DNA from: Deltaproteobacteria bacterium
GTDB lineage: Bacteria > UBA10199 > SPLOWO2-01-44-7
Assembly (NCBI GenBank): GCA_030648035.1
Contig: JAUSII010000122.1
Coordinates: 24,537 to 88,536 of the forward strand
Reading direction: 5' to 3'
DNA: 64,000 nucleotides
A program made the position numbers and the translations under genes. This document shows, piece after piece, positions 1 to 56,865 of the stretch (positions are counted from its first letter, which is position 1; each line of letters starts with the position of its first letter). Under the pieces are notes generated by a model. That model was not told where the DNA came from. It ran no database searches and saw only the letters and a list, made by a program, of their open reading frames with translations.

Positions 1-204
1 TGGTTCAAAGAGGCACTCCCCAAACAGGGTTGGACCATCAGCGGCGAGGAGCAGGCGACGCCCGAGCTGGGCCAGATCTATTTTGGCAACGACCAATACA
101 GCGGCGCCGTCACCTTCGCCAAAGACAAACAGAGCGGTTTGACCATGATCACCCTCTCCGCCATGACCGCCGAAGAGGCCCAGAAAATTGGGCAGGCCCA
201 GTAA
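1..204 (+). CDS. 3' end of a hypothetical protein (frame 1 is open from the window edge; ...TAEEAQKIGQAQ*)
   Basis: Frame-1 translation is open from nt 1 to TAA at 202-204 with bacterial-like codon usage. The listed 30..242 ORF is in a different frame and looks like a GC-rich shadow. Confidence 0.4.
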   Translation, partial: WFKEALPKQGWTISGEEQATPELGQIYFGNDQYSGAVTFAKDKQSGLTMITLSAMTAEEAQKIGQAQ

Positions 205-567
205 TAACAGCCATCACATTAACCCCGAAGGGGCCCCTTTGAGGCAAAGTGAAGGATCTCGTGAAAATACACAAAAAATTGGGATTCTTCGCTTCACTCA
301 GAATGACACGCCGAAATTTTCATGGATTTTGAGAGGCGCCGCAAAATAAATCTTGACAGCAATTGCATTCATGTACTAGTTCATGAATACACATGAAAAC
401 AGAACCTTTCAAAAATTCTATAAACGCCTTCAGAACCGCTAGATCCGCTGCGCCCTACTCACTTTCTCGTTTTGCCCTAGAAATACAATGGTGGGCTTAA
501 AGCCCATTTCAACCCTGTCTTGATAAATATTTTTTGCCTTTTTTAACCATTTACAACAGGAGGAATT

Positions 568-918
568 ATGTCTCAATACGATTATACATGTTCAAAAAAA
601 ATACACACTTATGGCCCGCCCTGTTTCATGGGTGACAACAATGAACCACAATGCACGTACAAAACAACGGAATGTACAATATTCAAAGTTTTGCCTAGCG
701 ATACGATATTCGATAAATTTTTTTCGATGCACTGTTCTTCATTTTCACTTTTCATTGAAAATGCTCGAACCGCAATCAAAGGAGTTCTTACGGAACATAA
801 AAAATCAACCCTGGCCAATACAGGAGTTGAACGACCCTGTTCTGAAATAAGTCTTTTTGACGGCTGTGGAAGCCGTGATGAAGCACCCATTTGCAAAAAA
901 TGCAGTGGCTCCTTTTAA
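568..918 (+). CDS. small Cys-rich hypothetical protein (116 aa)
   Basis: AGGAGG RBS sits 6 nt upstream of the ATG. The protein has 10 Cys and no recognisable family. Confidence 0.45.
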   Translation: MSQYDYTCSKKIHTYGPPCFMGDNNEPQCTYKTTECTIFKVLPSDTIFDKFFSMHCSSFSLFIENARTAIKGVLTEHKKSTLANTGVERPCSEISLFDGCGSRDEAPICKKCSGSF

Positions 919-991
919 CCAATGGGGGTTGTTTGGTCAAAAGTGGAGAATAGAAAATAGAAAATGGAGGAACCCCGCCTTGCGGCGGGGT

Positions 992-1082
992 TGGTGCCCG
1001 GGGCCGGACTTGAACCGGCAAGGACTGTATTAGAGTCCGAGGGATTTTAAATCCCTTGAGGTTACCATTTCTCCACCCGGGC
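992..1082 (-). tRNA. tRNA-Leu(UAA), CCA encoded
   Basis: Manual cloverleaf: 7-bp acceptor GCCCGGG/CCCGGGC, discriminator A, anticodon stem AGGGA/UCCCU with loop UUUAAAA, long variable arm, CCA encoded. Confidence 0.85.
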
Positions 1083-1725
1083 ATTTTAAATTCTCAAGAC
1101 ACTGTAATGCCTTTAAACGTTTGCGGCCCAATGTTATGCAATTATTTTTATAACATGCAGATAAAACATTAGTTACTGCAGACTTGTTGCTAAATTTTAG
1201 AATATATCCGGTACTGGAATGATATTTTTCAAAATGGATCGTTCCTTTGGCTGCAAGAATCATTTGTGCTCTTTTTTGCAACCAAGTTAAAAAAGTTTTT
1301 GAGCCCGAATTAACCTTACAATACCACATTACTCGTCCTTTGGGCCTCACCCAATTTCTAATGCACCCATCTCCATCCAATACTCCTCTAAAAAAATGGG
1401 TGAATTGTTTTCTTGGGACATTCAAAGCGCCGAGTGTTTTACTTTTATTCGGAGTTAACCCTTGAATTTTCAGAAAATTGTAAAAGGATTTGGAACTGAT
1501 GACAACTCGATGACAAAGTTGTTTATTACCATTCCATTTCCTGCAGACATTACCACTCAACTTCATTTCCACTTTTATCAATTCTAAAAAATCTTTTTCC
1601 TTGGAACTGATATCCACATGCCTTCCATCCGAACTCAAACATCCATCACTTGTAATTAATCCGACTAAATACCAAAGATTCTCCGGAGAAAGGTTTTCCC
1701 AAAAAAATGTCCTTTTTGCTCCCAT
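1030..1725 (-). CDS. LAGLIDADG-family homing endonuclease, double-motif type
   Basis: Two LAGLIDADG-like motifs (LVGLITSDGCLSSDG and FFRGVLDGDGCI). Start taken at the Met just after tRNA-Cys. The 3' 53 nt of the ORF overlap the 5' half of tRNA-Leu. The region is AT-rich relative to its flanks. Confidence 0.75.
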   Translation of the reverse strand: MGAKRTFFWENLSPENLWYLVGLITSDGCLSSDGRHVDISSKEKDFLELIKVEMKLSGNVCRKWNGNKQLCHRVVISSKSFYNFLKIQGLTPNKSKTLGALNVPRKQFTHFFRGVLDGDGCIRNWVRPKGRVMWYCKVNSGSKTFLTWLQKRAQMILAAKGTIHFEKYHSSTGYILKFSNKSAVTNVLSACYKNNCITLGRKRLKALQCLENLKCPGGEMVTSRDLKSLGL

Positions 1726-1727
1726 TG

Positions 1728-1800
1728 AGGCGCGGGGCGGAGTCGAACCGCCGCATGACAGTTTTGCAAACTGCTCCCTTAACCACTTGGGTACCGCGCC
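1728..1800 (-). tRNA. tRNA-Cys(GCA)
   Basis: Manual fold: acceptor GGCGCGG/CCGCGCC, discriminator U, 3-bp D-stem (typical for Cys), anticodon loop UUGCAAA, T-loop UUCGACU. CCA is not encoded. Confidence 0.85.
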
Positions 1801-1930
1801 AAAATTTGTGCAACAAATTTCACGACTTGTTATTCGCAATACGGTTCACACGTCTTAAACAACCCCATCCATGCCGTCAACAAACAAAAAAGGTTTCGCG
1901 AATTACTCCCAACACTGATAGGGTCCGCGC

Positions 1931-15665: not shown

Positions 15666-15741
15666 GGTGGCTATAGTGTAAGGGTTAGCACAAGAGATTG
15701 TGGATCTCTTTGTACGGGTTCGAATCCCGTTAGCCACCCCA
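15666..15741 (+). tRNA. tRNA-His(GUG) with encoded G-1 and CCA
   Basis: Extra 5' G, acceptor GUGGCUA/UAGCCAC, discriminator C, anticodon loop UUGUGGA, T-loop UUCGAAU. Confidence 0.9.
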
Positions 15742-15776
15742 AAAGTGAAAAGTCAAGACTTGGACTTCACCCCTTT
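15742..15776 (+). repeat. 35-bp element AAAAGTGAAAAGTCAAGACTTGGACTTCACCCCTT (left IR of the tRNA-His cassette)
   Basis: Imperfect inverted copy at 18675-18706; related copies at 23608, 56866 and 58978. Confidence 0.7.
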
Positions 15777-16379
15777 ATGTGTGACTCCGATCTAATAAAA
15801 ATAGTTGTGACATCGTCGCTCACACTTTTTGCGACACTTTTTGTTGCATACTGTTCTCAACAATGGACTCTCAATGGTCAGAAGGAGCTAAAAGATAAAG
15901 AGGCGAGACAGCTCGCGTTTAGCGAGTTAATGGGTCTCAAGCTCATACGTCAACAGTTGTTCCTGAGTCGTTTTGAAGCTGTCGCCTATTCTGACTATCA
16001 CGAACAAAGATGGCAACTTCAAGGCGCCCAAAAGGATTCTCTGGATTTTTCAGAAGCAACCCGATGGCAACACAAGGCAGAAGATTTTGTCCAAGACATC
16101 TCAAGTAACACTGAAAAGCTCTTCAACGTTCTCGGCAGAATAACCATTCTCTTTCCAGCAACTCCAGAGATAGATCAATTGATTGAGAAACTCTATAGAT
16201 TTAAGACCCCAAAATTTAATGTAGAGGCAAAATCGATACAGGATTTGAAAAATCTAGAAGGCTGGAAGCTGGCTGTGACACTAGACCTGCAAAAGATAGT
16301 GGAGACCGAATACGGAAAGCCATTTGATGATTTGGTGACATACCTAAAACCCCAACTTCTTCAAAAGAACTGTAGATGA
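15777..16379 (+). CDS. hypothetical protein, N-terminal TM anchor (cassette gene 1)
   Basis: ORF begins immediately after the IR in low-GC DNA. Confidence 0.5.
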   Translation: MCDSDLIKIVVTSSLTLFATLFVAYCSQQWTLNGQKELKDKEARQLAFSELMGLKLIRQQLFLSRFEAVAYSDYHEQRWQLQGAQKDSLDFSEATRWQHKAEDFVQDISSNTEKLFNVLGRITILFPATPEIDQLIEKLYRFKTPKFNVEAKSIQDLKNLEGWKLAVTLDLQKIVETEYGKPFDDLVTYLKPQLLQKNCR

Positions 16380-16558
16380 GCGTTTTCGTAAAAAAACCAC
16401 CTCTAATGATAGAGTTCCAACTTATAACCCTCTTGATTATTCACAAAAGCAAGGCGGAACTTGTCAGTTCTCTACTGATTGCGGTATAGGGCAGAAATGC
16501 CTTAAGGAAAGTGGGCAGATATATGGTACATGCATATGAGGCCAACCATGAACGTGCG

Positions 16559-17926
16559 ATGTTTATCGTTAAGTTGACGATTCTTGTTTTCCTCATTATT
16601 CAATGCGTGCTTGCGTTTGGATGTGCTGGCAAACAGGTAGATTTAGTAACCGCTAAGTATACCAGCAATGACTATCCTCTTGAATATGACATAGGATTGG
16701 GAACGCTAATTTTAGAGAGGCAAAAGATTTTGAGTGGGGATAAAATTGATTCCAAAAGAAACCAGAAAAATTTAGCAGTACTTCAAGAAATAACCCAACG
16801 TCTTGCAAAGGTAAGTCATTATCCACAATTTCCGTATGAAGTTCATTTAGTTGATGCTGATGTTAATAATGCGTTCTGCGCTCCGTGCGGAAAAATTATA
16901 GTTTATGAAGGTCTATGGAATCCTTCGACTGGGTTAGTAGAACAAGGGAATAAGGCCCAACTCGCCGCTGTTTTGGCCCATGAAATTGCACATGCAAATG
17001 CACGACACGGCACAGAAGGTTTGACGCGTCATGATTGGATAAACGTATGGGTTTCTGGTTTGACAGGTGGCATTGCTGGAGCAACTGCTGGTACAAGTTA
17101 CGCAAGCTGGGGGCAATTACTCAACAGTGCTATTTCCGTTACTGGCGAAGCAATAATTCCAACTTATTCACGAAAAGATGAGCTTGAGGCGGATCAAATT
17201 GGCCTGATGTATATGGCACGGGCTGGTTATGACCCAAATGAAGCAGTTAAGTTGTGGGAAAAAGCAACAAGTGCAATGCATAATGATAAAAAAAGTGTTT
17301 TTGCTACGCATCCCACAGATGGCACACGTGCTTCAAAGCTCAAAGAACAAATGCCGTCAGCAATGTTGTACTACAATGATTCCAAAAAAGGAACGACGCC
17401 CGCAACCTATAAACTATTGGCCAACATCAATCCTGATATATACGATGTAAAACATGACTCCTGCAGTTTTAGATATAAGCAAATTGCATTGGTCGATAAC
17501 AAAAGCTACATTGCCACTCTCATGGATCATCTAAAGAGAAAAAAGAGTCAAACAAACGATCCTATTATGAAAAAAGAATTGCAAAATAGAATCGCCAATC
17601 TACAGAAGCACGGCCGCATAACTTTCTACCAAATCAATCCCAATTCCATTGGCGATGGGAAAAATGAATTTTATCAATATCCCGCTGATGACATTGAAAA
17701 TCCAATGTATGTTGAGATTCAGCCATCTGGAGAGGTGTTCTTATCGAGCGCCGCGGTGAGACCTCGCCATGTATGTAGAGGAATGCTGCCTAAACAATTT
17801 AATAGTCAGACAGAAAAGTTTCTTTGCACTTGGGACATTGACGGCAGAACTCCTATAAAATCCTTAAAGAGGTGTGAATTCTCTGTGCTTAGACGAGCAG
17901 CAATTGATAACAATGCAAAAAAATAA
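16559..17926 (+). CDS. M48-family Zn metallopeptidase (BepA/YcaL-like) lipoprotein with C-terminal extension
   Basis: HEIAH zinc site and downstream EADQIG motif; lipobox LAFGC. Start uncertain (16511 or 16559). Confidence 0.7.
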   Translation: MFIVKLTILVFLIIQCVLAFGCAGKQVDLVTAKYTSNDYPLEYDIGLGTLILERQKILSGDKIDSKRNQKNLAVLQEITQRLAKVSHYPQFPYEVHLVDADVNNAFCAPCGKIIVYEGLWNPSTGLVEQGNKAQLAAVLAHEIAHANARHGTEGLTRHDWINVWVSGLTGGIAGATAGTSYASWGQLLNSAISVTGEAIIPTYSRKDELEADQIGLMYMARAGYDPNEAVKLWEKATSAMHNDKKSVFATHPTDGTRASKLKEQMPSAMLYYNDSKKGTTPATYKLLANINPDIYDVKHDSCSFRYKQIALVDNKSYIATLMDHLKRKKSQTNDPIMKKELQNRIANLQKHGRITFYQINPNSIGDGKNEFYQYPADDIENPMYVEIQPSGEVFLSSAAVRPRHVCRGMLPKQFNSQTEKFLCTWDIDGRTPIKSLKRCEFSVLRRAAIDNNAKK

Positions 17927-18096
17927 AGAAAAAAGAGATCCACGGAGAAAGATAGGCCATCATTAAAACGACCATTTCACTACACCTTTCGTCCAAAATC
18001 CGTCGCTCATTTTTATAAAACCCCGTCACCACTCAATATAATCCATTTCACGGTTGGCATGCGGATTGCTTAGTCAACAGGCGGGAGGAAATTATT

Positions 18097-18603
18097 ATGA
18101 CAGATATTATTCCTGTGGAGCGTATTGAACAGACGATTCTTCTTGTTAGGGGACAGAAGGTCATTATGGATGTGGATTTGGCCATTCTCTACGGAGTTTC
18201 TACCAAACGACTTAATGAGCAGGTCAAACGCAATTTGGAACGTTTTCCCCACGATTTTATGTTTCAATTGAATTCGAGAGAAATGGATGAACTGGTCGCA
18301 AAATGCGACCGGTTCAAAAACCTGAAACATTCTACTGTATTGGCACATGTTTTTACCGAACATGGAGCGCTCATGTTGGCAAATCTCTTAAAAAGTCCGA
18401 TAGCGGTTCAAGCCAGCATTCATGTCGTTAGAACTTTCATTAAGCTACGAGAAATATTAGCCACCCACAAAGATCTTGCCCGCAAATTGGCCCAATTAGA
18501 AAAAACATATAATCATCAATTCAAGATGGTTTTTGAAGCGATTCGTCAATTAATGGAAACACCAACACCAAAGCCCAAGAATCCGATCGGATTTAGAAAG
18601 TGA
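18097..18603 (+). CDS. ORF6N-domain protein (phage antirepressor-like)
   Basis: N-terminal ...VRGQKVIMDVDLAILYGVSTKRLNEQVKRNLERFPHDFMFQL matches the ORF6N signature. Confidence 0.7.
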   Translation: MTDIIPVERIEQTILLVRGQKVIMDVDLAILYGVSTKRLNEQVKRNLERFPHDFMFQLNSREMDELVAKCDRFKNLKHSTVLAHVFTEHGALMLANLLKSPIAVQASIHVVRTFIKLREILATHKDLARKLAQLEKTYNHQFKMVFEAIRQLMETPTPKPKNPIGFRK

Positions 18604-18674
18604 ATCGCTATCTCTTCCGGGACAAGACCGGTTCTTGACAAGCCTGATTCGCTTATTTAGATTTCAGATGAAAG

Positions 18675-18706
18675 AAAAAGGGGTCAAGTTGGACTTTTCA
18701 CTTTTG
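18675..18706 (-). repeat. right IR of the tRNA-His cassette (inverted copy of the 35-bp element)
   Basis: Its reverse complement CAAAAGTGAAAAGTCCAACTTGACCCCTTTT matches 15742-15776. Confidence 0.65.
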
Positions 18707-18772
18707 AAATTCATCAGCTATGGACAGGAAAAAATTTAAAATTATTTTACGATGATGCCGGTTTTGTCCCCC

Positions 18773-18818
18773 TAAGGGATGCCCCCAGTCAAAAATCAGC
18801 AATGCCCTGATGGTCTCT
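18773..18818 (+). promoter_or_regulatory. regulon motif copy P8, degenerate (GCCCCCAGTCAAAAATC...TGCCCTGATGGT)
   Basis: Same orientation and spacing as the other copies; about 70 bp upstream of csbD-like 18887. Confidence 0.55.
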
Positions 18819-18886
18819 CGCTCGGTTTGTGTTATTTTTTAAAAATAAGTTCGTGCAAACCATTCAGTATTAACCAGGGAGGCATT

Positions 18887-19051
18887 ATGGCAGGAGAATT
18901 CGATAAAGCCAAAGGGCGCATTAAAAAAGCGGTCGGGGAGTTGATAGGGAATGACAAGTTGAAGCGCGAAGGTTCGATCGACAAGTTGTCGGGCAACATA
19001 AAATCAGGAGTGGATAAGGTCAAAAAAGTTTTGGAAGGAAAGAAAGTCTAA
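18887..19051 (+). CDS. CsbD-family general stress protein (54 aa)
   Basis: KAKGRIKKAVGELIGNDKLKREG...VDKVKKVL is a CsbD-like bipartite helical repeat. GGGAGG RBS present. Confidence 0.75.
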   Translation: MAGEFDKAKGRIKKAVGELIGNDKLKREGSIDKLSGNIKSGVDKVKKVLEGKKV

Positions 19052-19081
19052 TCAAGAGAATTGGTTTTTGTGTCGGCATGC

Positions 19082-19654
19082 TTAATGTTTACAGGTTATG
19101 TCTGGCTTGAAAACGTTTCCGCTCATGTGGATTTTGGTATGCAGGTCTTTGCCGTTTTTTGCCAAGAAATTAGCGAGGCCTTCTTCAAGATTGAGAAATG
19201 TTTTTTTTGCTTTTACCACCTTGCCGTCAAATAGCACTACGTCAACATCAACATCGATCTGGGTCGTCTGCACCCAACCTTTTGCCTGAATATTGGCCAT
19301 TCCCTCTATGGCAGTATACCCGCATATGAGGCTGATTTTCGGATTGAGCTCTGCCGCTGGAACACGGCTGATCTGAATTTTCTGAAAATCAAAGCGCAAT
19401 GGCAACAGCTGAAAAGTCCCTTTTGCCTCAAGAGGAGCACTTTTAGAGGAACCCTCAATGATGAACGAGATTTTTGCGAAGCCTGTGAGTTCTGTCTCCA
19501 CTTTTGTCAAATGAACGGAATAGGGGAAAAGAAAAAAATTCCCTCCCCACTTGATAAAAAAATTCCGAAATAAAAAAATAGAAAACAGGAGCAGACTGAC
19601 AACAGAAAAAACAGCAATGTAGGTTTTCATTTTCATTTTCATTTTCATTTTCAA
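19082..19654 (-). CDS. membrane-anchored hypothetical protein (possible LEA_2/WHy-like)
   Basis: N-terminal TM anchor. The 5' end is built from an (AAAATG)5 hexamer repeat encoding (MK)5. Confidence 0.5.
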   Translation of the reverse strand: MKMKMKMKMKTYIAVFSVVSLLLFSIFLFRNFFIKWGGNFFLFPYSVHLTKVETELTGFAKISFIIEGSSKSAPLEAKGTFQLLPLRFDFQKIQISRVPAAELNPKISLICGYTAIEGMANIQAKGWVQTTQIDVDVDVVLFDGKVVKAKKTFLNLEEGLANFLAKNGKDLHTKIHMSGNVFKPDITCKH

Positions 19655-19706
19655 ATTTTAAAGCTTCCAAAATCAAAGCCCACGTTAACCCCTTTGCCCG
19701 ATCCTG

Positions 19707-21551
19707 TTAAGGCCAAAGAACACTGACCCCTTTGGCTCTCAGGGCATCGATTTGGGAGGAGGGAATTTGGGGGTTACCTTCAAGACCTACAAGATCATCA
19801 CCGTGATCCAATCCACTATTGCTAATAAGAGGATTGATATCTGAAATTTGATTTTCAGTCAGGAGAAGTATGTGTAAATTAATAAGCGACGAGAGGGGAT
19901 TTAAATCTGATATTTGGTTCCCATTAAGAACAAGCGAATACATATTAGTAAGCGCTGAAAGAGGTGCCAAGTCTGATATCAGGTTTTCATGAAGGGTGAC
20001 TCCGGACAAATTAACGAGTGATGCGAGAGGAGACAGGTCTGATATTTGATTATTGTGAAGCACTAGCCCGCCCAAATGTGTGAGCGGCGAAAGAGGGCTG
20101 AGATCTGCAATCTGGTTGTGATCCATATCAATGTTGATCAAATGAATAAGCGATGAAAGGGGGGATATGTCCTGTATCAGATTGTAAGAAAGATAAAGCT
20201 CGGTAAAACTGGCACTGGTAAGCGACGCAAGTGGGCTTAAATCCGATATTTGATTTCTCATAAGACTAAGCCGACGCAAATGAACCAGTGGCAGAAATGA
20301 AAGTGGGGACAAATCTGATATTTGGTTTTCATCAAGGCTCAATTCATAGAGAAGATTAGCAAAACATTCCAAGCCTGACAAATCCTGGATGTGTTTCCCA
20401 TGTAAGCCAATCCACAAGCCTGCGCTTGTTCTGTTTAATGTATCTTGCAATGTGAGATCATCAGTCGGGCCTTTTTCTAAACCTTGTCTTATTGCATTCA
20501 AAAGATTGGAATCTGCAAATGCATCGGTGATAATACCATCTCCATCCGGATCACAGTGTGTTCTGATATTTTGAGGAACAGTACAAACAAACCCCTCGTC
20601 TATTGAGACATTACAGTTATCATCAATATCATTACAATCCTCAACAGCCCCCGGATTTATGTTACCGGCATTATCGTTGCAATCTCCCTCTACGTCGGTC
20701 CAGCCCGACGGATACTTCGAACTCGACAGGCTTGAGCAAACTTCAATGGAATCATTTAAACTTCCATAACCATCATTGTCTACGTCGTGATAAAGGCTCT
20801 TGAAATTGGTGCATTCCGGAGGACCTGCATCTTGATGCCCAGCGTCTGAATGCAAAACCGTTGCGCCAGCATCACGCGCCCCACCGTCCAAATGATCTTT
20901 CCCGCCATGCCATCCATCGACATCCATCTCATTATCGTTTTGACCATTCTGGGAAGGATATCCACAACCAAAAACAGCCATTGCTGAGGCCATTGCAACA
21001 TCACGCACACTCACTCCATTTTGATTCTCTGCCGTATACTTTCCTTTTGGTATCGTCCCTTCACCAAATTTGTAGAAATAGACGCCCGTAACACGGTGAA
21101 TATAATCTCTAAAACCTTCGTCCGATTTCCATCCAATGGATTGCGCAAACCATCCACTTTTTTGTGTTTTGGAATTTGTTATAGCTGGCTCTAAACTGTA
21201 AACATCATTTTTTGAGAATGATGCCAAAGCTCTGTGTTGATTATGGTCTACGGAGGACTTATTTTCCGGAGAACAAACACCTTTAATTGACCAGCCCATA
21301 TTATTAACCTTTCTCTTTCGCCACTCCGTGTAACCCCATACAGTAAGGGTTATCGTCGGTATAGCAAAAAAAGTTGCGTAAAGAGGACCATTAAAGTAGA
21401 GGGGTCCAACTTGGCCCCTTTTTCCGGTGCTTTTCACTCTCGTATCGGTGGCACTCACCGCTATTTTTCTGTATTCGCTATCTTGCTTATTTGGTAGTCT
21501 CCGTCTGATGTTTTTTATTTTCTCCAGGTTGTCTCTTCTTTTTTTGCTCAT
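19707..21551 (-). CDS. leucine-rich-repeat protein (internalin-like LRRs), signal-anchored
   Basis: At least 8 tandem 22-aa LRRs (LxxLxLxxNQISDLSPL) and an Asp-rich middle region. Confidence 0.8.
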   Translation of the reverse strand: MSKKRRDNLEKIKNIRRRLPNKQDSEYRKIAVSATDTRVKSTGKRGQVGPLYFNGPLYATFFAIPTITLTVWGYTEWRKRKVNNMGWSIKGVCSPENKSSVDHNQHRALASFSKNDVYSLEPAITNSKTQKSGWFAQSIGWKSDEGFRDYIHRVTGVYFYKFGEGTIPKGKYTAENQNGVSVRDVAMASAMAVFGCGYPSQNGQNDNEMDVDGWHGGKDHLDGGARDAGATVLHSDAGHQDAGPPECTNFKSLYHDVDNDGYGSLNDSIEVCSSLSSSKYPSGWTDVEGDCNDNAGNINPGAVEDCNDIDDNCNVSIDEGFVCTVPQNIRTHCDPDGDGIITDAFADSNLLNAIRQGLEKGPTDDLTLQDTLNRTSAGLWIGLHGKHIQDLSGLECFANLLYELSLDENQISDLSPLSFLPLVHLRRLSLMRNQISDLSPLASLTSASFTELYLSYNLIQDISPLSSLIHLINIDMDHNQIADLSPLSPLTHLGGLVLHNNQISDLSPLASLVNLSGVTLHENLISDLAPLSALTNMYSLVLNGNQISDLNPLSSLINLHILLLTENQISDINPLISNSGLDHGDDLVGLEGNPQIPSSQIDALRAKGVSVLWP

Positions 21552-23604
21552 CAGCCCGTTTCTTTTTTCGCCCGCCTCTTTAGCCCAAACGGATATGAGT
21601 CATTATTATGACGACACACAGAAACAGATGCAAAAGTCGGCCGAGGTCATCAACAAAATGGCGCAACAGCAGCAGCAAATGATGCAGAAATTGATGAACA
21701 CACCTCAAATGAAAAAAATGTCACAGAAAATGATGAAAGAGGGGGAAAAATATCATAACAATATGTTGGATGAATGGGATGTCGTGGTGCGTATGAACCT
21801 GCGATATTATCTGGAGCGCCACGACAGCGTCCAGTCAGATGGAAAAACGACACGCACCGACAGCCATGTTCTGTTGGAGGCCCAGCGTGACTTTAACGGA
21901 AAATTAATCAAGGCCTACACCCTCAACAAAAAGCATCCCGAAAAATATGAGTATGAGATAAATGGGCTCACCAGCGAAAAAGCCGATGTGAAAAAAGTGG
22001 CGTATGATTTGGCGATGCGCACTTCACCCAATGGGGGCCAGTCTCATTGTCACGGTGAAGCATGGAGCCAAGATCCCGGCTCAATTAGCGCAAAGCCTCT
22101 TGCAACAACAGAAAGCGCGGACAAAAGATATCACATCCATCTGGACGCCGGCATCACCATGGAAAGCCAAGACTGTTTTGCCTATCCGGTCCCTTATTTT
22201 AAAGCGGATCTTCTCCTCTCTAAAGACGATTTAGATGCCTTGATAAAAAAAGGATATTGGGAAAAAACATTTGATCAAAAATATCTTGCCGATGTGAACG
22301 CTGTGATCGGCGGTGCAGGTTGGCCCGGCGCGCCGCTTTACAGTCTGGTTTTGCTCGATCCGCAAAAATCCGGAAATTATCGGGACACACAGGTTCATAT
22401 CGAAATATTATTATCGCCGCGCATCAAGGGCCCGCATTTTGCCGCTTTCCCCAAGCAGACCCTCCACTTGCTCGATAATTATGTGACTCTCAAGGCGGAG
22501 TCGGTGCCGGGTTGGCAGGTGAGCGATATTAAACCAAAGGAAGGTTGGGCGGTCGCTTCAAAATATGTGAGAAAAGTTCCGGGGGCCAGCTCTTCCGGTT
22601 CCACTCTTCAATTAGCGCCATTAGCGCCGGGCAAAATTCATTTCGAAGTTGACTGGACAAGCCCCACCGGAAAAAAGGGAAAGAGTGATCCATTTGAATT
22701 TACGGTCGTGCAGCTCGAATTCAAAAAAGAGGGAAATTGCAACGGCTTTGATGATGTGGAATCGGATCCGGTGCCGACAGCCTCCATTTGCGTGGGTAAA
22801 GACAAAAATGTTTTACTGGAGGCCCTGCCAAGGGGTGTGCAAGTCGAGACCCGATTAGAAGCCGCTGATAGAAACGCCTTTCAGATAACGCCGCAAACGG
22901 TTCCCGGTTTTTCAGCTGAGCCGCAAAAAATCACGCTTCAGGGAATCAGCCCCAAACAAGATTCTACACTGACGGCCAAAATCAAAATCGGTGACGATGA
23001 TGAAGAATATCAGGTGGCTGCACAAATTATCACCGACACCCTCAAAATGCGTGATATCAAAGTGCTCCCATTTTTTCTCGATTCCGACCCACTGTCTTTG
23101 GTGCCACCCAGAATCAACGATATGTTCAATCAGGCTAAAACAGATTTGAAGCAGGCTTGTGTGACGCTCGATGTTCTACCAACCGAAACCCTCAAACCAA
23201 AAGAGGTTCCCAGTTATTTAGGCGGCGCCTCGATCCGTTATGATTTGGAAAACTGGAAACCTCTGGTCGATTATTCCCGCAAACTGGCAAATCACAAAGA
23301 TCAGGAGCTGACTGTTTTTATTGTCCCTCTCATTGTGACGCAAAAAGTGGATGCAAAAGGAAATATGACTCAAGACATAAATCCATTGGGTTTTCAAAAT
23401 GCCGACTATGTTTTTGTTTCGGAAGCGAGTTTTCCCCAACATATTCACGTTCTGGGGCACGAAATCGGCCACTATATTTTTAAAGATATGTATGTCTCAC
23501 TGGAGGGGTCAACCCACACCGATTTTTCCGATATGCTGATGTATCATACCAGCTCTAAAAAGTGTGAAATCCACCATGAGGAATGGCGCAATATTTCCCG
23601 TTAA
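21508..23604 (+). CDS. secreted hypothetical protein with C-terminal HExxH motif (putative Zn-metalloprotease)
   Basis: Signal peptide ...SPASLA|QTD; HVLGHEIGHYIF near the C-terminus. Start uncertain; divergent overlap with the LRR gene. Confidence 0.55.
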   Translation: MFFIFSRLSLLFLLISPFLFSPASLAQTDMSHYYDDTQKQMQKSAEVINKMAQQQQQMMQKLMNTPQMKKMSQKMMKEGEKYHNNMLDEWDVVVRMNLRYYLERHDSVQSDGKTTRTDSHVLLEAQRDFNGKLIKAYTLNKKHPEKYEYEINGLTSEKADVKKVAYDLAMRTSPNGGQSHCHGEAWSQDPGSISAKPLATTESADKRYHIHLDAGITMESQDCFAYPVPYFKADLLLSKDDLDALIKKGYWEKTFDQKYLADVNAVIGGAGWPGAPLYSLVLLDPQKSGNYRDTQVHIEILLSPRIKGPHFAAFPKQTLHLLDNYVTLKAESVPGWQVSDIKPKEGWAVASKYVRKVPGASSSGSTLQLAPLAPGKIHFEVDWTSPTGKKGKSDPFEFTVVQLEFKKEGNCNGFDDVESDPVPTASICVGKDKNVLLEALPRGVQVETRLEAADRNAFQITPQTVPGFSAEPQKITLQGISPKQDSTLTAKIKIGDDDEEYQVAAQIITDTLKMRDIKVLPFFLDSDPLSLVPPRINDMFNQAKTDLKQACVTLDVLPTETLKPKEVPSYLGGASIRYDLENWKPLVDYSRKLANHKDQELTVFIVPLIVTQKVDAKGNMTQDINPLGFQNADYVFVSEASFPQHIHVLGHEIGHYIFKDMYVSLEGSTHTDFSDMLMYHTSSKKCEIHHEEWRNISR

Positions 23605-23607
23605 GAT

Positions 23608-23632
23608 CAGGGGCCAAGTCTTGACTTTTCTT
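23608..23632 (-). repeat. solitary copy of the 35-bp element (CCAAGTCTTGACTTTTC)
   Basis: Exact reverse complement of GAAAAGTCAAGACTTGG from 15749-15765. Confidence 0.6.
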
Positions 23633-24080
23633 ATGGAAGGCGCGACATCATTTTCTGGCCAATCCGGATTATTTTTTCGTCACTGCAGGGTATCAGCATA
23701 CAGCTGACATTCACGCAAACGGGACCTTTAATCAAAAATAGAGACCCTTTGTCAGGCACAAGAAAGGAACCCTTGCCAAGACTGGGAACCATTTTGAAGT
23801 CTTGATAAGGACTCGGCTTACAAGATTCTGCGGGATCAAACAAAATGGTCAAAGCCCCTTTTTTATCGACAGTGCCAAGGGTGTATTCACAACCAATGGT
23901 CTGTATTTCCCATTGGCCGCCAAAATCGGCTACAGCATCTTGTTTCGTATACGGCAGTCCTCCGGAAGCGGTTCTGTATGGAGCGCAAGAATTACTCTCC
24001 GCCCCCCGAGCTTCCTGGAATTGTGAATACATCACACAGCAGACGATGAACAATAACGATACAACAATTTTTTGAACCAT
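23631..24080 (-). CDS. secreted hypothetical protein (149 aa)
   Basis: Signal peptide and 7 Cys. Confidence 0.5.
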   Translation of the reverse strand: MVQKIVVSLLFIVCCVMYSQFQEARGAESNSCAPYRTASGGLPYTKQDAVADFGGQWEIQTIGCEYTLGTVDKKGALTILFDPAESCKPSPYQDFKMVPSLGKGSFLVPDKGSLFLIKGPVCVNVSCMLIPCSDEKIIRIGQKMMSRLP

Positions 24081-24105
24081 GGGACACCTCCTTGGTATTG
24101 GTGAA

Positions 24106-25443
24106 TCACATTTTAAATTTCTTTTTCAAAGCATCCAGATCCTCCTGCCTTGCGCGCACACAGAGACAGGTGCCTTTGTCATCGTAGGATTCAGAGATCA
24201 CGCGCATCCGATTGCGAATCTCTCCGATCACTCCGGGGGTGGTGTACGGGATGAAGAGTTCGCTCTCAATCATGTCTGTTTCAAAAAAACCGATGATGGC
24301 ATCTCTTAAATACCGGATATTCTCTTTGTCAAAAGTCGAAATAAAAAATGCTTTTGGAAATTCTTTTTTTAACTGCAAAATTTCCGGCTCTTTCAGCAGA
24401 TCGCATTTGTTGAGCACCAACCAACTTGGGTTTTCGCCGGCACCGACTTCGCTTAAAACATTTTGCGTCACTTTCAGTTGACTGCGAAACGTCGGATCAG
24501 AGGCATCCACCAGATAGAGCAACAACGACGCATTCAATGCCTCATCCAAAGTTGATTTAAAGGAGGCGATAAGATCGTGGGGCAATTTTTTGATGAACCC
24601 GACGGTATCCGACAAAAGTATTCTGGGATGCGTCTCGGGATAGAGGGGCCTGATCGTGGTGTCGAGAGTTGCAAAAAGTTTGTCGGCCACCAGAACGTCG
24701 ATGCCGGTCATGACTTTCATCAGCGAAGATTTGCCGGCGTTGGTGTAACCGACAAGCGCCACCGCATTTTCCCGGTCTCGCCTTGCCCGCCGCACCTCAT
24801 GTTCATTGGCAATAGAGGCGAGTTCACTTTTTAATTCTTTGATGCGGTCCCGAATCTTGCGGCGATCCAGCTCCAGTTTGGTCTCACCGGCACCGACGCC
24901 ACCACCGCCAACCTGTTTGTCGTTGCCGGTTTCGCGAAGTCGCGGCGCCAGATAAGTGAGCCTTGCAATCTCCACCTGCAGACGGGCCGATCGCGTGCGC
25001 GCATGACGGCCGAAAATTTCGATGATCACACCGGTGCGATCGAGCACCGTCACACCGGTCGCACTTTCCATGTTGCGGAGTTGCGAAGGCGACAGCTCAC
25101 AATCGACCACGACAAGGTCGGCCTTCTCCTTGGGCAATTCAGTGTCGCCACCCTCTTCTTCTTCATCCACTGTTTTTGTTTTTGAAAATTGCAAGGCGGC
25201 TTTATGAATTTTTCGTTTCACAAGAGATTGAACAACACCGGTGCCCCCCGTCCACTGGGCCAGAATTTCCAGTTTGCCCTCCCCAAGAAAGAGGGGCGTT
25301 TTCAAAGAAGATTTTTTTTGGGAAACCTCGCCCACGACTTGGTGACCCAGAGTTTTGACCAGACGGCCAAGCTCTTTCATCGAAGCTTTGTGTTCTTCTG
25401 AAGTCGTTTTGGGAAGTTGAATTCCAACCAGAATAGTTTTCAT
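24106..25443 (-). CDS. hflX: GTPase HflX
   Basis: HflX N-domain plus G-domain (G1 GYTNAGKSS, DTVGF, NKCD). Confidence 0.9.
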   Translation of the reverse strand: MKTILVGIQLPKTTSEEHKASMKELGRLVKTLGHQVVGEVSQKKSSLKTPLFLGEGKLEILAQWTGGTGVVQSLVKRKIHKAALQFSKTKTVDEEEEGGDTELPKEKADLVVVDCELSPSQLRNMESATGVTVLDRTGVIIEIFGRHARTRSARLQVEIARLTYLAPRLRETGNDKQVGGGGVGAGETKLELDRRKIRDRIKELKSELASIANEHEVRRARRDRENAVALVGYTNAGKSSLMKVMTGIDVLVADKLFATLDTTIRPLYPETHPRILLSDTVGFIKKLPHDLIASFKSTLDEALNASLLLYLVDASDPTFRSQLKVTQNVLSEVGAGENPSWLVLNKCDLLKEPEILQLKKEFPKAFFISTFDKENIRYLRDAIIGFFETDMIESELFIPYTTPGVIGEIRNRMRVISESYDDKGTCLCVRARQEDLDALKKKFKM

Positions 25444-26435
25444 AATTTGAATCGCACTTTCAGTTCTGCCAAGGTTAACCGCTCTTCTTTCTGCAGTCGA
25501 CGAATTTCTTCAATCTGCAGAATCGCCTCTGGTGCATACAAATGATAACCCCCCTGGGAAAGTCTGTTTTCACGCAACAATCCTTCTTTGGTCCAATGAC
25601 GAATCGTGGCCGTGGTTTCACCGGTGGCCATGGCCAAGGCTCCGATTTTGAGAAGTTTATCCAGCGCGGGACTGGCAGGTGGCGCTTCTCCCTCCAACAT
25701 CTGTAACATCTCATCCAATGATCGAATGATGGCTGTGTAAATCACATGATAATATTTTTCTGCGCCTCGCCCCAACTGTGCACTCTCAATGCTTTTGATA
25801 TACTCCAACCGGTCTTCTTTGCGAATAAGCGCTGGTGGCAATTTCGTTTGCATCAGCAATAGATCCATCAGCAATCGCCCCGCACGGCCATTACCATCCA
25901 CAAACGGATGAATGCTTACAAAATTGAGATGGGCATCGGCGGCAATGGTGGCAGGATGCAGAGTGAGATTGCCATGCAACCATTGCATCAACTCCTGCAT
26001 AAGCGCAGAAATTTTCAACGGATTCGGCATGACAACGGTTGACCCCGAAATACGCACCGGAACTCTGCGATAGACACCGGCATTGTTATCATCAATGCCG
26101 TGGAGAATGATCGCGTGAATATCGAGCAGGGTTTTTTCGGCAATCTCATTGCGGGAGTGATCACAGAGCGTTGCAATAAAATCAAAAGCGCGGGCATGGT
26201 TGACCGCCTCGAGCTGTTCCACCAGCGTCTTGCCCGCAACAGTCAGGCCCTTCTCCACCACCAACGCAGTTTCCTGGCGCGTGAGAGTGTTACCCTCGAT
26301 GGCGTTAGAGGTGTAGGTCAGCTCAATTCGAAACCAAGCTTCGATATTCTTGAAAAATTCGGGTGTAAATGGCCGATGGTCGTCCAGTGCCTTGCACTTC
26401 TGGTCTATTATAAGGAGAAGGTCTTTCAAGACCAT
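25440..26435 (-). CDS. Fic family protein with C-terminal MerR-like HTH
   Basis: Fic motif HPFVDGNGRAGR; N-terminal inhibitory-type SNAIEGN ([ST]xxxE[GN]). The 4-nt overlap with hflX suggests an operon. Confidence 0.85.
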   Translation of the reverse strand: MVLKDLLLIIDQKCKALDDHRPFTPEFFKNIEAWFRIELTYTSNAIEGNTLTRQETALVVEKGLTVAGKTLVEQLEAVNHARAFDFIATLCDHSRNEIAEKTLLDIHAIILHGIDDNNAGVYRRVPVRISGSTVVMPNPLKISALMQELMQWLHGNLTLHPATIAADAHLNFVSIHPFVDGNGRAGRLLMDLLLMQTKLPPALIRKEDRLEYIKSIESAQLGRGAEKYYHVIYTAIIRSLDEMLQMLEGEAPPASPALDKLLKIGALAMATGETTATIRHWTKEGLLRENRLSQGGYHLYAPEAILQIEEIRRLQKEERLTLAELKVRFKL

Positions 26436-33105: not shown

Positions 33106-34923
33106 ATGAGAGTCCGCAAAAAGTTATTCACGAAGTTGCTCACGAAGTTGTTGGTGTCTTTGTCTCTGTCTCTGGCCACTCTGGTAACAGGTTGTGGCGG
33201 GAGTGATGGCGGAGGAGGGGTAGCAGGAACAACCACCGCCCTGGCCAACGTCGTTGTCCCCACTGTAAGTTCCACAAACCCTGCTGATGGTGATGTCGGT
33301 GTATTCATCAACAGAAAGGTGACTGCGGTATTCAGTGAGGATATGGACCCTGCAACCATCGACGACACAGTCTTTGTTTTAAACCAGGGAAGCGTGCCTG
33401 TTTCAGGTGTTGTAACCGCATCGGGTAACGCGGCCACCTTCACGCCCACAGGCAACTTGGGGATAAGCACCGTCTATACGGCAACGATCACGACCGGAGC
33501 CACCAGCTTGGCAGGTAATGGATTGGCCGCCAGTGAAGTATGGAGTTTTACGACAGGGACGACGGCAGATTCCACCGCCCCAACGGTGAGTTCCACAAAC
33601 CCGGTCAACGCGGCCACAGGTGTGGCCATCAACAGTACAGTCGCCGCATCCTTTAGCGAAGAGATGGATCCCCTGACGCTCACGACCTCCACTTTTCAAG
33701 TTTCAGGTCCTGACTCCGTTCTTGTCGCGGGGACGGTCAGCTATGCTTTGGTAGGCAACGTCGCAACCTTTACTCCCACAAGCAGTCTTGCAGTCAACAC
33801 CCTATTTACAGCAACAATCTCTACCGGTGCCAAAGACCTCGCGGGCAATGCGTTGGATTCCAGTAATGTATGGAGCTTTACAACAGGTGCAGTGGCGGAC
33901 AGTGTCGCCCCCACCGTCAGTTCCACCAACCCTGCTGATGCCGATGTGAGTGTGGCTCTTAACAAGACAATCTCCGCCACCTTCAGTGAGTCGATGAACG
34001 CCGCAACAATCACCACGGCAAACTACACATTGGCAGGGCCCGGCGCGGTTCCCGTCACAGGAACAGTCGACTATGTTTTGGCAACCAACATTGTAACCTT
34101 TACTCCCGCAAGCAATCTCGCACCGAGCACCTTATTTACAGCAACGATCAGCACCGGTGCCAAGGATCTCGCGGGGAATGCATTGGCTTCCAATAAAGTG
34201 TGGACCTTTACATCAGGGACAGAAGCGGCTCAGACTGTCGCTCAAACAGTAGTCCCCCTTGGATCGTCTTCCACCTTCGCGATTCTGGCTTCTGCGGCAA
34301 TCACCAGTATCCCGACTTCATCCGTTATCGGAGATATCGGTCTGACCCCGGATGCCGGATCCAATCTCACCGGGTTAACATGTTCAGAAATAACAGGCAC
34401 AGTCTACGTCACCAGTGCGGGTGGCAGTACTCTCGCCTGTCAGACCATCAGCGCGAGCATTCTCGATACCGCCAAAACCGATGCGGCCACTGCGTTCACC
34501 AATGCCAGGGACGCTGTTCGCGGAACACCTGCATCCATATCGGGCAATCTGAATGGTCTCACGCTGTATCCCGGGCTGTATGAATCGGGCACCTCGCTTG
34601 AGATATCCGCTGGCGGCATCCTTTATCTGGATGCTCAAGGCGATGCGGATGCCATCTTCGTCATCCGGAGTGAAACCTCCATCACCACACTGTCCACAAG
34701 CCAGATCGTCTTGACCAAAGGCGCAAAGGCCAACAACGTCTACTGGACAGCGGGAAGTGCGGTGACTCTGGGAGCCAACTCGATCATGAAGGGAACTTTC
34801 ATCGCGGGTACTGCGCTCACACTGCAGACCGGTGCAAACCTGGAAGGAAGAGCGTTGAACCAGGGTGCATCCGCCGCGGCGATTTCACTCGACGCCAGCA
34901 CTATTACCGTGCCTTCACCGTAG
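33106..34923 (+). CDS. secreted protein: 4 bacterial Ig-like (SbsA/Big_5-type) repeats + C-terminal DUF3494 ice-binding-like domain
   Basis: Lipobox/signal VTGCGG. Repeats APTVSSTNP...FTPxxNLAxxTLFTATIxTGAKDLAGNAL. C-terminal FAILASAAIT...GNLNGLTLYPGLYESG...NVYWTAGSAVTLGANS matches the DUF3494/IBP fold signature. Confidence 0.85.
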   Translation: MRVRKKLFTKLLTKLLVSLSLSLATLVTGCGGSDGGGGVAGTTTALANVVVPTVSSTNPADGDVGVFINRKVTAVFSEDMDPATIDDTVFVLNQGSVPVSGVVTASGNAATFTPTGNLGISTVYTATITTGATSLAGNGLAASEVWSFTTGTTADSTAPTVSSTNPVNAATGVAINSTVAASFSEEMDPLTLTTSTFQVSGPDSVLVAGTVSYALVGNVATFTPTSSLAVNTLFTATISTGAKDLAGNALDSSNVWSFTTGAVADSVAPTVSSTNPADADVSVALNKTISATFSESMNAATITTANYTLAGPGAVPVTGTVDYVLATNIVTFTPASNLAPSTLFTATISTGAKDLAGNALASNKVWTFTSGTEAAQTVAQTVVPLGSSSTFAILASAAITSIPTSSVIGDIGLTPDAGSNLTGLTCSEITGTVYVTSAGGSTLACQTISASILDTAKTDAATAFTNARDAVRGTPASISGNLNGLTLYPGLYESGTSLEISAGGILYLDAQGDADAIFVIRSETSITTLSTSQIVLTKGAKANNVYWTAGSAVTLGANSIMKGTFIAGTALTLQTGANLEGRALNQGASAAAISLDASTITVPSP

Positions 34924-43450: not shown

Positions 43451-46400
43451 ATGAGTATGACCGACGGAATATGTTTTAGACCGAATCAAAGCCATTCTGA
43501 AGCAGAAGATGCCAATATGTCCTGTGCGTCTTTTGAATCTTTCAGCTCATCGACCGTTCAGACAGAAGGGGCAGATTCTGGAGGACGAGAACGTTTTTTA
43601 GCGGGCAGAGATTATCTAAGAGATTTGGAAGGGCGTTCTGTTCTGCCAGATGGCTACAAGGGCAAATCCAATGGTATTCCTTTAGGGATATTCGCTGTTG
43701 CCGGCGTTACTGGAACAACAGTGGGACTTATTGCAACGCCTGCAGTTGGACTTGCCGTGGGAGGAGCTATTTTATTGTCCGGATGTTCGGATACAGACAA
43801 CCCAAAGGGAAAAACAGATTCTTCGGCAGAACCGGTATGTAATAAAAATTCTGATTGCAATCCCCCTGTCACAGTTTGTAAAGAGGGAACCTGCCAACCT
43901 CCTAAACCCTGCAATGATGATGAAGATTGCGAGGGAGAAAATGTAAATACTCAATGCGATGATGCTTTGGGAGTATGCAGAGAAAATACCACTTCAATTG
44001 AAATTTGTGACGGCTTAGATAACAACGAGGATGGTAAAATTGATATCGATCCTCAGACAGGTGAAAAAATTTCGAAACCCTGCGGTGGCCGGAGTGTTGG
44101 AATATGCCGTCCAGGGGCACAACACTGCGACGCCGAAAAGAACTCTGCTCAAGAACATTGGAGCGATTGTACAGGAGTTGTTCCGAAAAAGAATGAGCAG
44201 TGTAATGGATTAGATGATGACTGTGATGGCTTAACGGATGAAGACCTGCCCGAATGCGGCCTTCATGTTCCCGTTTTAAATCCGATTGGTGACAAAATTA
44301 TTGATGAGGGACAGCGGTTGAGGTTTGTTTTGTCAGCAGTGGATGCGGATGATAATCCGTTAACCTATTTTGCATCTCACCTTCCGGAGGGAGCTAGATT
44401 TGATCCGGTCGACCGCGTTTTTGATTGGACCCCCAGTTTTGAACAGGCGGATGTCTATTCAGACATTCACTTTGGAGTGAGTGATGGGATAACTACGACT
44501 GGTGAAGATATTACGATCACCGTTCAAAATGTGAATCGTCGGTGTGTCATGTCTCCAATTCCAGATCAGACGGTGGATGAAAATGAATCTTTGGTTGTGA
44601 CCGTAAATGCATCCGACCCGGATGTGGATGACACGTTGATTTTTAGCGGAGATAACTTACCAGCAGGTGCGACAGTAAACTCGAGCACCGGAAAATTAAA
44701 CTGGAGACCCACCCTTACGCAAGCCGGAGCATACCGAGACATCGGGATCACGGCGACAGATGGGGATATGAGCTGTAACCAGCATTTTGATGTTGCGGTT
44801 ATCAATGCCAACCGACCGCCGGTAATGGACGCCATCTCCAATCAGACCATCAATGAAAATCAATTACTCACCGTTACCCCACGGGCCTCCGATCCAGATG
44901 GTCAAACCTTAAATTTCAGTGGCAATAATTTGCCTCGTGGTGCGGTAGTCAATCCAACTACAGGAGTGTTGACTTGGACACCCGGCTTCGATCAGGCCGG
45001 CTCATATCCAAACGTGGGGATCACCGCGAGTGATGGGAGTTTAAGCGTTACACAAAGATTTAGTATAACCGTTAATAATGGAAACAGGCCGCCAGTAATG
45101 GAAGCCATCCCCAATCGGACTATCAATGAGAATCAATTACTTACCATCACCCCACGGGCCTCTGATCCAGACGGTCAAACTTTAAATTTCAGTGGCAATA
45201 ATTTACCCCGCGGTGCGGCAGTTAATTCAACTACAGGGGTGTTGACTTGGACCCCCGGCTTCGATCAAGCGGGCACATACCCAAACGTGGGGATCACCGC
45301 GAGTGATGAAAATTTAAGCGTCACACAAAGATTTAGTATCACCGTTAATAACGTAAACAGTCCTCCAATTTTAAATTCAATCGGCAATAGAACTGTCAAT
45401 GAAGGAGGATTGTTGACGTTTACCGTTTTTGCATCCGATCCAGATGGAGATGCGCTGACCTATTCCGCCTCCAATCTGCCGACGGGATCGAGTTTTAATG
45501 TTTCAACGAGAGTTTTCAGTTGGACACCAAATTGCAGGCAAGCGGGTGCATATCCGGTAAGTTTTTCTGTGACAGATCGTGGGACACCCAATTTATCAGA
45601 TAGTGAAAATGTTATGGTCACAGTTAACGAAGCCTGTTCCAATGTTGCGTGGACTAGAACATATAATGGATCGTTTAATGGTAGGGATATCGGCCATGGC
45701 ATCGCCGTGGATAATAATGGGAATGTGTATGTGACGGGTTCTGAGGAGGCTACTGAACTAAATTATAATATTTGGGTCAGGAAGTATGATGCCAATGGCA
45801 ACACTTTATGGACAAGGACCTATAATGGCTCTGCTAATAGTACTGATGAAGGCCGAGGCATCGCCGTAGATAATAATGGAAATGTGTATGTGACTGGGTC
45901 TGAAATTGTTGCCGGGCAACGTAGTAATGTTTGGGTTAGAAAATATGATACCAATGGCAATGCTTTATGGACCGAAACCTATAATAATCCTGCTAACAGT
46001 TCGGATGAAGGTCACGGCATCGCTGTAGATAATAATGGGAATGTGTATGTAGCGGGAGATGAGAATGTTGCTGTACAATATGCTAATATCTGGGTCAGAA
46101 AATATGATGCCAATGGCAATGCCTTATGGACCAAGACCTATAATAATCCTGCTAATGGTCCTGATATGGGCCAAGGCATTGCCGTAGACAATGTTGGAAA
46201 TGTGTATGTGACGGGTTTTGAGGATGCTGATGAGGAATCTTTTAATATCTGGATCAGGAAGTATGATGCCAATGGCAATACTTTATGGACAAGGACCCAT
46301 AATGCCAATTGGGGAGATTTCGGCAACGGTATTGCCGTAGACGGAAATGGAAATGTGTATGTGACGGGTTCTGAGACTGTTGTTGCGGGAAATGATAATA

Positions 46401-56852: not shown

Positions 56853-56865
56853 TTTTTTTTAGAGT

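Follow-up and report, generated by a model that had tools for sequence, protein, structure and literature searches.

The DNA investigated here is a window of 64,000 nucleotides (positions 24,537 to 88,536 of the forward strand of contig JAUSII010000122.1, assembly GCA_030648035.1) from the metagenome-assembled genome (MAG) of a bacterium classified as Deltaproteobacteria, and the element in question is a stretch of AT-rich DNA that starts directly behind a gene for tRNA-His. An earlier note, made from the letters of the sequence, had described a 3-kb cassette at 15742-18706, bounded by 35-bp inverted repeats and carrying three genes on the plus strand for a membrane-anchored hypothetical protein, a lipoprotein peptidase of family M48 with a C-terminal extension of 190 residues and an ORF6N protein. 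All three genes are present as described, with the extension of the peptidase coming to about 180 residues, and the tRNA and open frames of this segment are the following.

15667-15741, plus strand: tRNA-His (anticodon GTG) with an encoded CCA, detected by ARAGORN and scoring 65.7 bits with the Rfam tRNA model; the left anchor of the AT-rich region.
15777-16379, plus strand: hypothetical protein of 200 aa (TM200) with one N-terminal hydrophobic helix (19-residue Kyte-Doolittle maximum of 2.02 at residue 6); GC content at third codon positions (GC3) 0.41.
16348-16539, plus strand: open frame of 63 codons without an ATG, GTG or TTG start, in frame +1 to TM200 and overlapping the TM200 stop; ends in the four-cysteine motif GGTCQFSTDCGIGQKCLKESGQIYGTCI.
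16559-17926, plus strand: M48 zinc metallopeptidase lipoprotein, 455 aa (Pfam PF01435, E 2e-33, 116 bits against a cut-off of 20.3, residues 74-263).
18097-18603, plus strand: ORF6N-domain protein, 168 aa (Pfam PF10543, E 2e-28).

The CCA of the tRNA-His is directly followed by AAAGTGAAAAGTCAAGACTTGGACTTCACCCCTTT and then by the ATG of TM200; the string quoted earlier for this place does lie there, except that its first letter is still the last A of the CCA, a base too soon.

Regarding composition, the AT-richness noticed by eye is borne out by a GC content of 40.9% for 15742-18706, against 49.6 +/- 2.1% (minimum 44.6%) in 3-kb windows outside the AT-rich region, hereafter the islet, and by GC3 values of 0.35-0.41 for the three genes between the two repeats. 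The onset of the foreign composition is the first base past the tRNA-His CCA. Its end is not at 18706, where the cassette had been thought to close, since the low GC continues to about 21.4 kb (41-42%) and then more weakly to the hflX gene at 24106, with the following values by segment.

18707-21398: 42.1% GC over 2.7 kb.
21399-23630: 46.4% GC over 2.2 kb.
23631-24105: 45.9% GC.
24106-25443 (hflX): about 50% GC.

The flanks of the islet have a GC content of 50-51%, and GC3 is 0.35-0.50 in the eight genes between 15777 and 24080, compared with 0.52-0.68 in most other genes of the window. Because the low GC runs beyond 18706, the compositional unit is larger than 3 kb: it is the stretch of about 8.4 kb from 15742 to 24105, with a strongly AT-rich part of 5.7 kb, and the segment 15742-18706 is the tRNA-proximal third of an islet lying between tRNA-His and hflX. 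A second foreign-looking gene of the window, encoding a surface protein of 1087 aa with He_PIG, SBBP and Big_9 domains (43451-46714, plus strand), has a GC3 of 0.39 and lies near no tRNA.

The remaining genes of the islet and its right limit are listed below.

18887-19051, plus strand: CsbD-like small stress protein of 54 aa (Pfam PF05532), inside the low-GC tract; the exact protein is encoded on a Logan contig (L215).
19082-19654, minus strand: hypothetical exported or membrane protein of 190 aa without a match in Pfam or NCBIfam.
19707-21551, minus strand: leucine-rich-repeat (LRR) protein of internalin-like type, recognised by Pfam LRR_4 and LRR_8 and by internalin models of NCBIfam, that also has a MopE-like cysteine motif; GC3 0.38.
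21508-23604, plus strand: exported protein of about 698 aa (listed open reading frame (ORF) 21427-23604, 725 aa) with a HEIGH zinc-protease-like motif near the C-terminus and a signal-peptide-like N-terminus; GC 46%.
23631-24080, minus strand: hypothetical exported protein of 149 aa without a match in Pfam or NCBIfam; the last gene before hflX.
24106-25443, minus strand: hflX GTPase (NCBIfam TIGR03156, E 5e-110), host-like (GC 0.50, GC3 0.55); the right limit of the islet.

The cargo of the islet thus consists mostly of exported or envelope proteins, together with the CsbD-like and ORF6N proteins. The LRRs are encoded by eight DNA repeats of 66 or 72 nt (19817-20343), and as the listed start of this ORF runs through one copy (c3) of the short repeat described below, the true start is probably near 21299. 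The protein with the HEIGH motif belongs to no significant Pfam or NCBIfam family, and its gene is bracketed by two copies of the same short repeat, c3 and c4.

The surroundings of the tRNA-His were compared with those in seven relatives, in which the left flank is syntenic (genes for an ABC transporter, patatin, Ldh, M23, a sigma-54 activator, LigA and a phosphatase). The phosphatase adjoining the tRNA-His has its closest relatives at 58-66% protein identity, and a scan of GTDB representatives for relatives of the locus gave nothing above 45% identity. The phosphatase side that faces the tRNA-His is different in each of the seven. In GCA_023265595.1 (L087) a large serine recombinase gene with Recombinase and Zn_ribbon_recom domains (3-1190, plus strand) abuts the orthologous tRNA-His (1179-1252, minus strand), the 3' end of the recombinase gene lying inside the 3' end of the tRNA and the contig stopping just past; the last 33 nt of the two tRNA-His genes are identical. 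In a second relative (L085) a gene for a 516-aa protein separates the phosphatase from the tRNA-His, which is followed on its other side by a 23S-rRNA-IVP gene; in the others no tRNA lies beside the phosphatase. A tRNA-His adjoining hflX was seen in none of the seven (58-66% identity; some contigs end just beyond the tRNA-His). The differing contents on the tRNA side, taken together with the recombinase at the tRNA-His of L087, mark the junction as a lineage-wide breakpoint that has at least once served as an integration site. The tRNA-His beside the block from LigA to the phosphatase is shown to be a recurrent point of integration and rearrangement in this 'Deltaproteobacteria' group.

The low GC might alternatively be native to the genome and reflect fast-evolving, weakly expressed genes for exported and surface proteins, in which case the adjacency to tRNA-His would be coincidental and the short repeats would be ordinary intergenic regulatory or 3'-end elements. 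This would fit the N-terminal signal or transmembrane (TM) segment found in nearly every islet protein, the low GC3 of the surface-protein gene at 43451-46714, far from any tRNA, the lack of attachment (att) repeats and of a recombinase, and the presence of an ORF6N homologue with 70% identity in a family-level relative. However, the composition changes precisely at the 3' end of the tRNA-His, the genes for the cytoplasmic ORF6N and CsbD proteins are equally AT-rich, ORF6N proteins are distributed across phyla and on plasmids, and a relative has the recombinase of a mobile element at this tRNA. Moreover, no islet gene has a detectable homologue in the loci of the seven relatives except ORF6N, whose copy sits at a different, non-syntenic locus. 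We consider a native origin unlikely.

Regarding hallmarks of mobility, no integrase, transposase or REP-associated tyrosine transposase (RAYT) domain was detected in any ORF of at least 80 aa in the window, in agreement with the earlier statement that integrase and transposase genes are lacking. A second copy of the tRNA-His 3' end was not found in the window (last 15 nt with up to 2 mismatches, last 24 nt with up to 3), so that no such copy marks a distal att site there.

We read the region, with moderate confidence, as an accessory islet of about 8 kb that was acquired horizontally at a hotspot beside tRNA-His, has since decayed, and is interspersed with a lineage-specific repeat resembling repetitive extragenic palindromic (REP) elements. 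A site-specific recombinase would have brought in foreign DNA of about 41% GC at the 3' end of the tRNA-His, probably on more than one occasion, and the recombinase and the att repeats would since have been lost, leaving the islet fixed and non-autonomous. Of the earlier suggestion of a decayed integrative element, or of a non-autonomous one mobilised in trans, this retains foreign DNA 3' of a tRNA without a recombinase of its own, whereas the extent of 3 kb, the repeats as termini and movement of the segment are not upheld.

The repeats were searched for by pattern, by alignment and with an nhmmer profile in the 64 kb of the window, which is all of the genome covered, and at least six copies were found.

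15741-15777, plus strand: c1, CAAAAGTGAAAAGTCAAGACTTGGACTTCACCCCTTT, from the last base of the CCA to the ATG of TM200 (nhmmer E 7.5e-5).
18668-18707, minus strand: c2, inverted relative to c1 and reading GAAAGAAAAAGGGGTCAAGTTGGACTTTTCACTTTTG on the plus strand (nhmmer E 7.5e-7).
21390-21430, plus strand: c3, GGGGTCCAACTTGGCCCCTTTTTCC, in the intergenic gap from which the LRR gene and the gene of the listed 725-aa protein diverge (E 8.6e-6).
23600-23638, minus strand: c4, GAAAAGTCAAGACTTGGCCCC on the minus strand, between two convergent gene ends (E 1.3e-4).
56864-56898, plus strand: c5, CAAAAGTGAAAAATCAAGACTTGAGC, outside the islet, matching c1 at 22 of 23 positions.
58979-59016, minus strand: c6, outside the islet, sharing AAAGAAAAGGGGTCAAGTTGGACTT with c2 (25 of 26 positions; nhmmer E 1.2e-7).

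All six copies are intergenic, 30-40 nt long, and fall three to each orientation. The consensus is roughly AAAGAAAAGGGGTCAAG(n)TTGGACTTTTCACTTTTG, with a core YCAAG(n)CTTGR set between AAAAG/GGGG and CCCCTTTT, and small central indels between copies. The imperfect inverted copy at 18675-18706 was confirmed by a gapped alignment with c1, in which an exact block of 15 nt, CAAAAGTGAAAAGTC, is followed by ACTTG and CCCCTTT across a 6-nt gap (ungapped, 29 nt at 76%). Taken alone, the pair c1/c2 is within chance for 64 kb (local score 35, below the 40 of the 99.9% background quantile). The family is beyond chance, with pattern counts of 3 where 0.02 are expected and 3 where 0.29 are expected, exact 17- to 21-mers common to different copies, and an alignment of c1 with c4 that matches at 17 of 17 positions.

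A seventh copy, of 42 nt and 90% identical to c6, was detected at about 780-900 of an unrelated metagenome contig with 42% GC (L212, Ga0182022_1188747), with a half-copy, GGAGACTTGACCCTTCTTTTC, some 60 nt downstream. Relatives with some 60% protein identity yielded no copy. When metagenomes were scanned with a strict 19-mer, 12 single matches resulted, about the estimated chance number, four of them in one conserved coding context; only the match on L212 could be extended. A looser pattern matched viral contigs 113 times, always singly, and was read as background.

Because the repeats belong to a family scattered over at least six intergenic sites, two of which (c5 and c6) lie some 40 kb off and bracket a DUF2243 gene and a gene for a 454-aa protein in DNA of near-host composition (48.3% GC), the '35-bp inverted repeats' are not the ends of the islet and are not demonstrably the termini of a cassette. 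A transposon bounded by terminal inverted repeats, or an element like a miniature inverted-repeat transposable element (MITE), was likewise rejected: the same motif recurs at 21.4, 23.6, 56.9 and 59.0 kb, target-site duplications are absent, the outer flanks of c1/c2, c3/c4 and c5/c6 having no direct repeat in common, and no further copies of a bracketed block were found.

Several points weigh against the reading as a decayed islet with scattered repeats. As the nearest relatives have only about 66% protein identity, an empty site could not be shown, and the acquisition is deduced from composition together with the lineage-wide variability of the locus. The islet, at 13% of the window, holds four of the six repeat copies, and the count covers 64 kb of the genome. 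Copies c1, c3 and c5 have one orientation and c2, c4 and c6 the opposite (chance about 1/16, from pairwise alignment scores), so that three inward-facing pairs result, each around a unit on the plus strand, namely TM200/M48/ORF6N, the HEIGH protein, and DUF2243 with the 454-aa protein. This paired orientation fits a role as cassette boundary better than a random distribution of REP elements does. Furthermore, stable RNA hairpins are absent from both strands of the six copies (z-scores of -1.0 to +1.5), which is atypical of classical REPs and of terminators.

The region could be a modular cassette array, in which the repeats are recombination sites for a recombinase encoded elsewhere and blocks of 2-3 kb are exchangeable in the manner of pdif/Xer modules or integron cassettes, the 3-kb cassette being one such module. 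The alternating orientation, the concentration of copies in the variable low-GC islet and the serine recombinase that L087 has at this tRNA would all agree with such an array, and two contigs of an independent assembly that end at the edges of c2 and share a 27-nt core would be expected from alternative junctions too. The alternation itself has a chance of about 1/16, the 64-kb window contains no recombinase, and the block between c5 and c6 has near-host composition. Sites with a constant spacer would not show the central indels seen between copies. At none of the repeats was a dif-like XerD arm detected, the sole match to TTATGTTAAAT (up to 1 mismatch) being at 56719, off any copy, and neither IntI nor an attC-like structure of 60-140 bp was found. 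Nor was a second copy of any bracketed block found among 5.8 billion clusters (for M48) or in plasmid and phage collections; no module occurs in a second context, the relatives of the M48 protein having at most 51% identity and the one full-length homologue (P0201) having unrelated neighbours. An array of this kind is distinctly unlikely in our view. Still less likely is an undescribed system of module shuffling, in which blocks of 2-3 kb would be inserted, excised or inverted in trans and would pile up at the tRNA-His as a chromosomal array with sites unlike dif or attC; it is kept as no more than a minority alternative, since target-site duplications, a dif-like arm, a recombinase in the window and a second copy of a block were all looked for and not found.

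Regarding the nature of the repeats within the decayed islet, we read them as a putative REP-like dispersed element or a protein-binding palindrome marking the edges of transcription units. Intrinsic terminators were considered and rejected, as no copy is more stable than its shuffled versions, a terminator scan picks none of them and c3 lies between divergent gene starts. A known RNA family was likewise dismissed, Rfam finding only three tRNAs in the window. The analysis documents a lineage-specific, near-palindromic intergenic repeat with copies that bracket transcription units in inverted pairs, and should this bracketing hold genome-wide, the repeat would be worth study as a recombination site or as an element pairing 5' and 3' untranslated regions (UTRs).

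An artefact of assembly or binning, in which a low-GC stretch was misjoined to the tRNA-His contig at short repeats, was also considered, the source being a MAG. The independent Logan assembly of a sample that also yields the islet proteins has contigs breaking at c2 and at about 16860-16883. At c2, contig L001 ends at 18706 and contig L215 starts at 18680, so that both break inside the repeat; such breaks are what a sequence recurring elsewhere in the metagenome of that sample would produce and, like the copy on L212, hint indirectly at a high genome-wide copy number. The two contigs overlap by their 27-nt core across c2 and agree with the window, another (L088) runs unbroken through the phosphatase, tRNA-His, c1, TM200 and the N-terminus of M48, and the repeat copies share fewer than 31 nt, too little alone to mislead an assembly at k=31. 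A misjoin is therefore hardly credible.

The M48 protein has a signal peptide that ends in a lipobox-like LAFGC, a HEIAH motif that is invariant in an alignment with its relatives (A1), and a cysteine-containing C-terminal extension. Its catalytic domain is that of a LoiP/YcaL-like lipoprotein peptidase. The NCBIfam matches are far under their cut-offs (LoiP, 40 bits against 365; BepA, 67 bits against 570), and apart from the entry of this MAG itself, the relatives among the 5.8 billion clusters match over the peptidase domain only, the first 60% of the protein. The one full-length homologue (P0201) has 443 aa, 34% identity and conserved cysteines; it is encoded in a variable region (1924-8439 of contig L202) with an AbiEi/AbiEii pair, a DDE transposase and SLFN_AlbA_2, and has no neighbours in common with the window. 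Three tRNA genes lie about 8 kb from that region. Searched alone against 1.84 billion representatives, the C-terminal extension retrieved only its own protein, apart from low-complexity noise. The AlphaFold (AF2) model has a predicted local distance difference test (pLDDT) value of 71.8, and its core matches the Geobacter peptidase 3c37 (Foldseek E 6e-8) and BepA 6ait; the pLDDT of the extension is moderate to low, and no credible structural match was found for it. The analysis thus places in a tRNA-linked islet an M48 lipoprotein whose C-terminal domain is nearly unique.

TM200 matches no family in Pfam, NCBIfam, PADLOC or PHROGs, and no TM200 homologue is encoded beside P0201. The proposal that the peptidase and its upstream membrane protein form a small effector/immunity or envelope-remodelling module is not supported, as nothing links TM200 functionally to the peptidase. 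A conserved TM200-M48-ORF6N module was rejected as well, the neighbours of P0201 being unrelated and the ORF6N homologue of the relative being in a non-syntenic context. The start-less frame at 16348-16539 is identical in sequence in the independent contig L088; it may represent the C-terminus of TM200 displaced by a frameshift, or else a pseudogene.

Regarding candidate defence functions, the ORF6N protein matches the PADLOC candidate anti-phage family PDC-S05 (PDLC04856, E 6.7e-55, residues 3-166 against positions 5-175 of a profile of 177), and it also matches anti-repressor families of PHROGs. Another member of PDC-S05, described as a Virulence_RhuM-domain protein, is reported in a preprint to reduce plating of T7 and T5 about 1000-fold in E. 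coli (bioRxiv 10.1101/2024.09.26.614923). A defence role of the islet ORF6N protein is putative, and a gene of the PDC-S05 type is here placed within a tRNA-linked islet. The ORF6N family is very large and has been transferred widely, with proteins of 60-73% identity in Deltaproteobacteria, Planctomycetota, Nitrospirota and WOR-3. When the cassette DNA was compared with plasmids and phages, matches were confined to two stretches of ORF6N, each about 160 nt long, on plasmids of Segatella and Legionella. Beyond the islet, a Fic-MerR fusion gene (25440-26435, minus strand) adjoins hflX; it matches the PADLOC models PDC-S04 (E about 1e-32) and SoFic (5e-29) and has a host-like composition.

Elsewhere in the window, a LAGLIDADG_3 ORF (E 5e-8; 1030-1839, minus strand, 39% GC) between tRNA-Leu (992-1082) and tRNA-Cys (1727-1800) has the look of a homing-endonuclease-like gene that has settled within a tRNA cluster, and two paralogous proteins with Big_5 Ig-like and Ice_binding domains are encoded at 33106-34923 and 48351-49913, both on the plus strand.

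On our favoured reading the islet is a routine case, a small accessory islet without a recombinase, situated at a tRNA hotspot of a lineage that has been little sampled, and its parts can be set beside known systems. The ORF6N gene resembles the PDC-S05 family in its full-length profile match and in being a stand-alone gene in a variable region; a difference is that the one experimentally tested member is described as carrying a Virulence_RhuM domain. Like the M48 peptidases LoiP, YcaL and BepA, the islet peptidase combines a lipoprotein signal with an M48 catalytic domain of the HExxH type, and its predicted fold matches those of 3c37 and BepA. It differs from them in scoring below the equivalog cut-offs and in a C-terminal domain of about 180 aa that is present in only one other protein of the databases searched, and it is without the tetratricopeptide repeat (TPR) domain of BepA.

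The repeat is similar to REP palindromes and bacterial interspersed mosaic elements (BIMEs) in being short (30-40 nt), imperfectly palindromic, strictly intergenic, present in both orientations and specific to this genome; in contrast to these, its hairpins are no stabler than shuffled sequence and its copies are kilobases apart rather than in tight clusters, with six in 64 kb. With the pdif (Xer) modules of Acinetobacter plasmids and with integron cassettes, the islet has in common blocks that lie between short alternating sites without a recombinase inside the block. Its sites, however, have no similarity to XerC/XerD arms, no fixed 6-bp spacer and no IntI/attC, and its blocks, each of one to three genes that have signals of their own, were not seen in a second context.

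Compared with tRNA-linked islands, the islet is at the small end (8.4 kb) and has neither an integrase nor a direct repeat of the tRNA 3' end, but it shares with them the position 3' of a tRNA gene, deviant GC and GC3, accessory cargo with a candidate defence gene, a lineage-variable locus and, in the relative L087, a recombinase-bearing element at the same tRNA-His.

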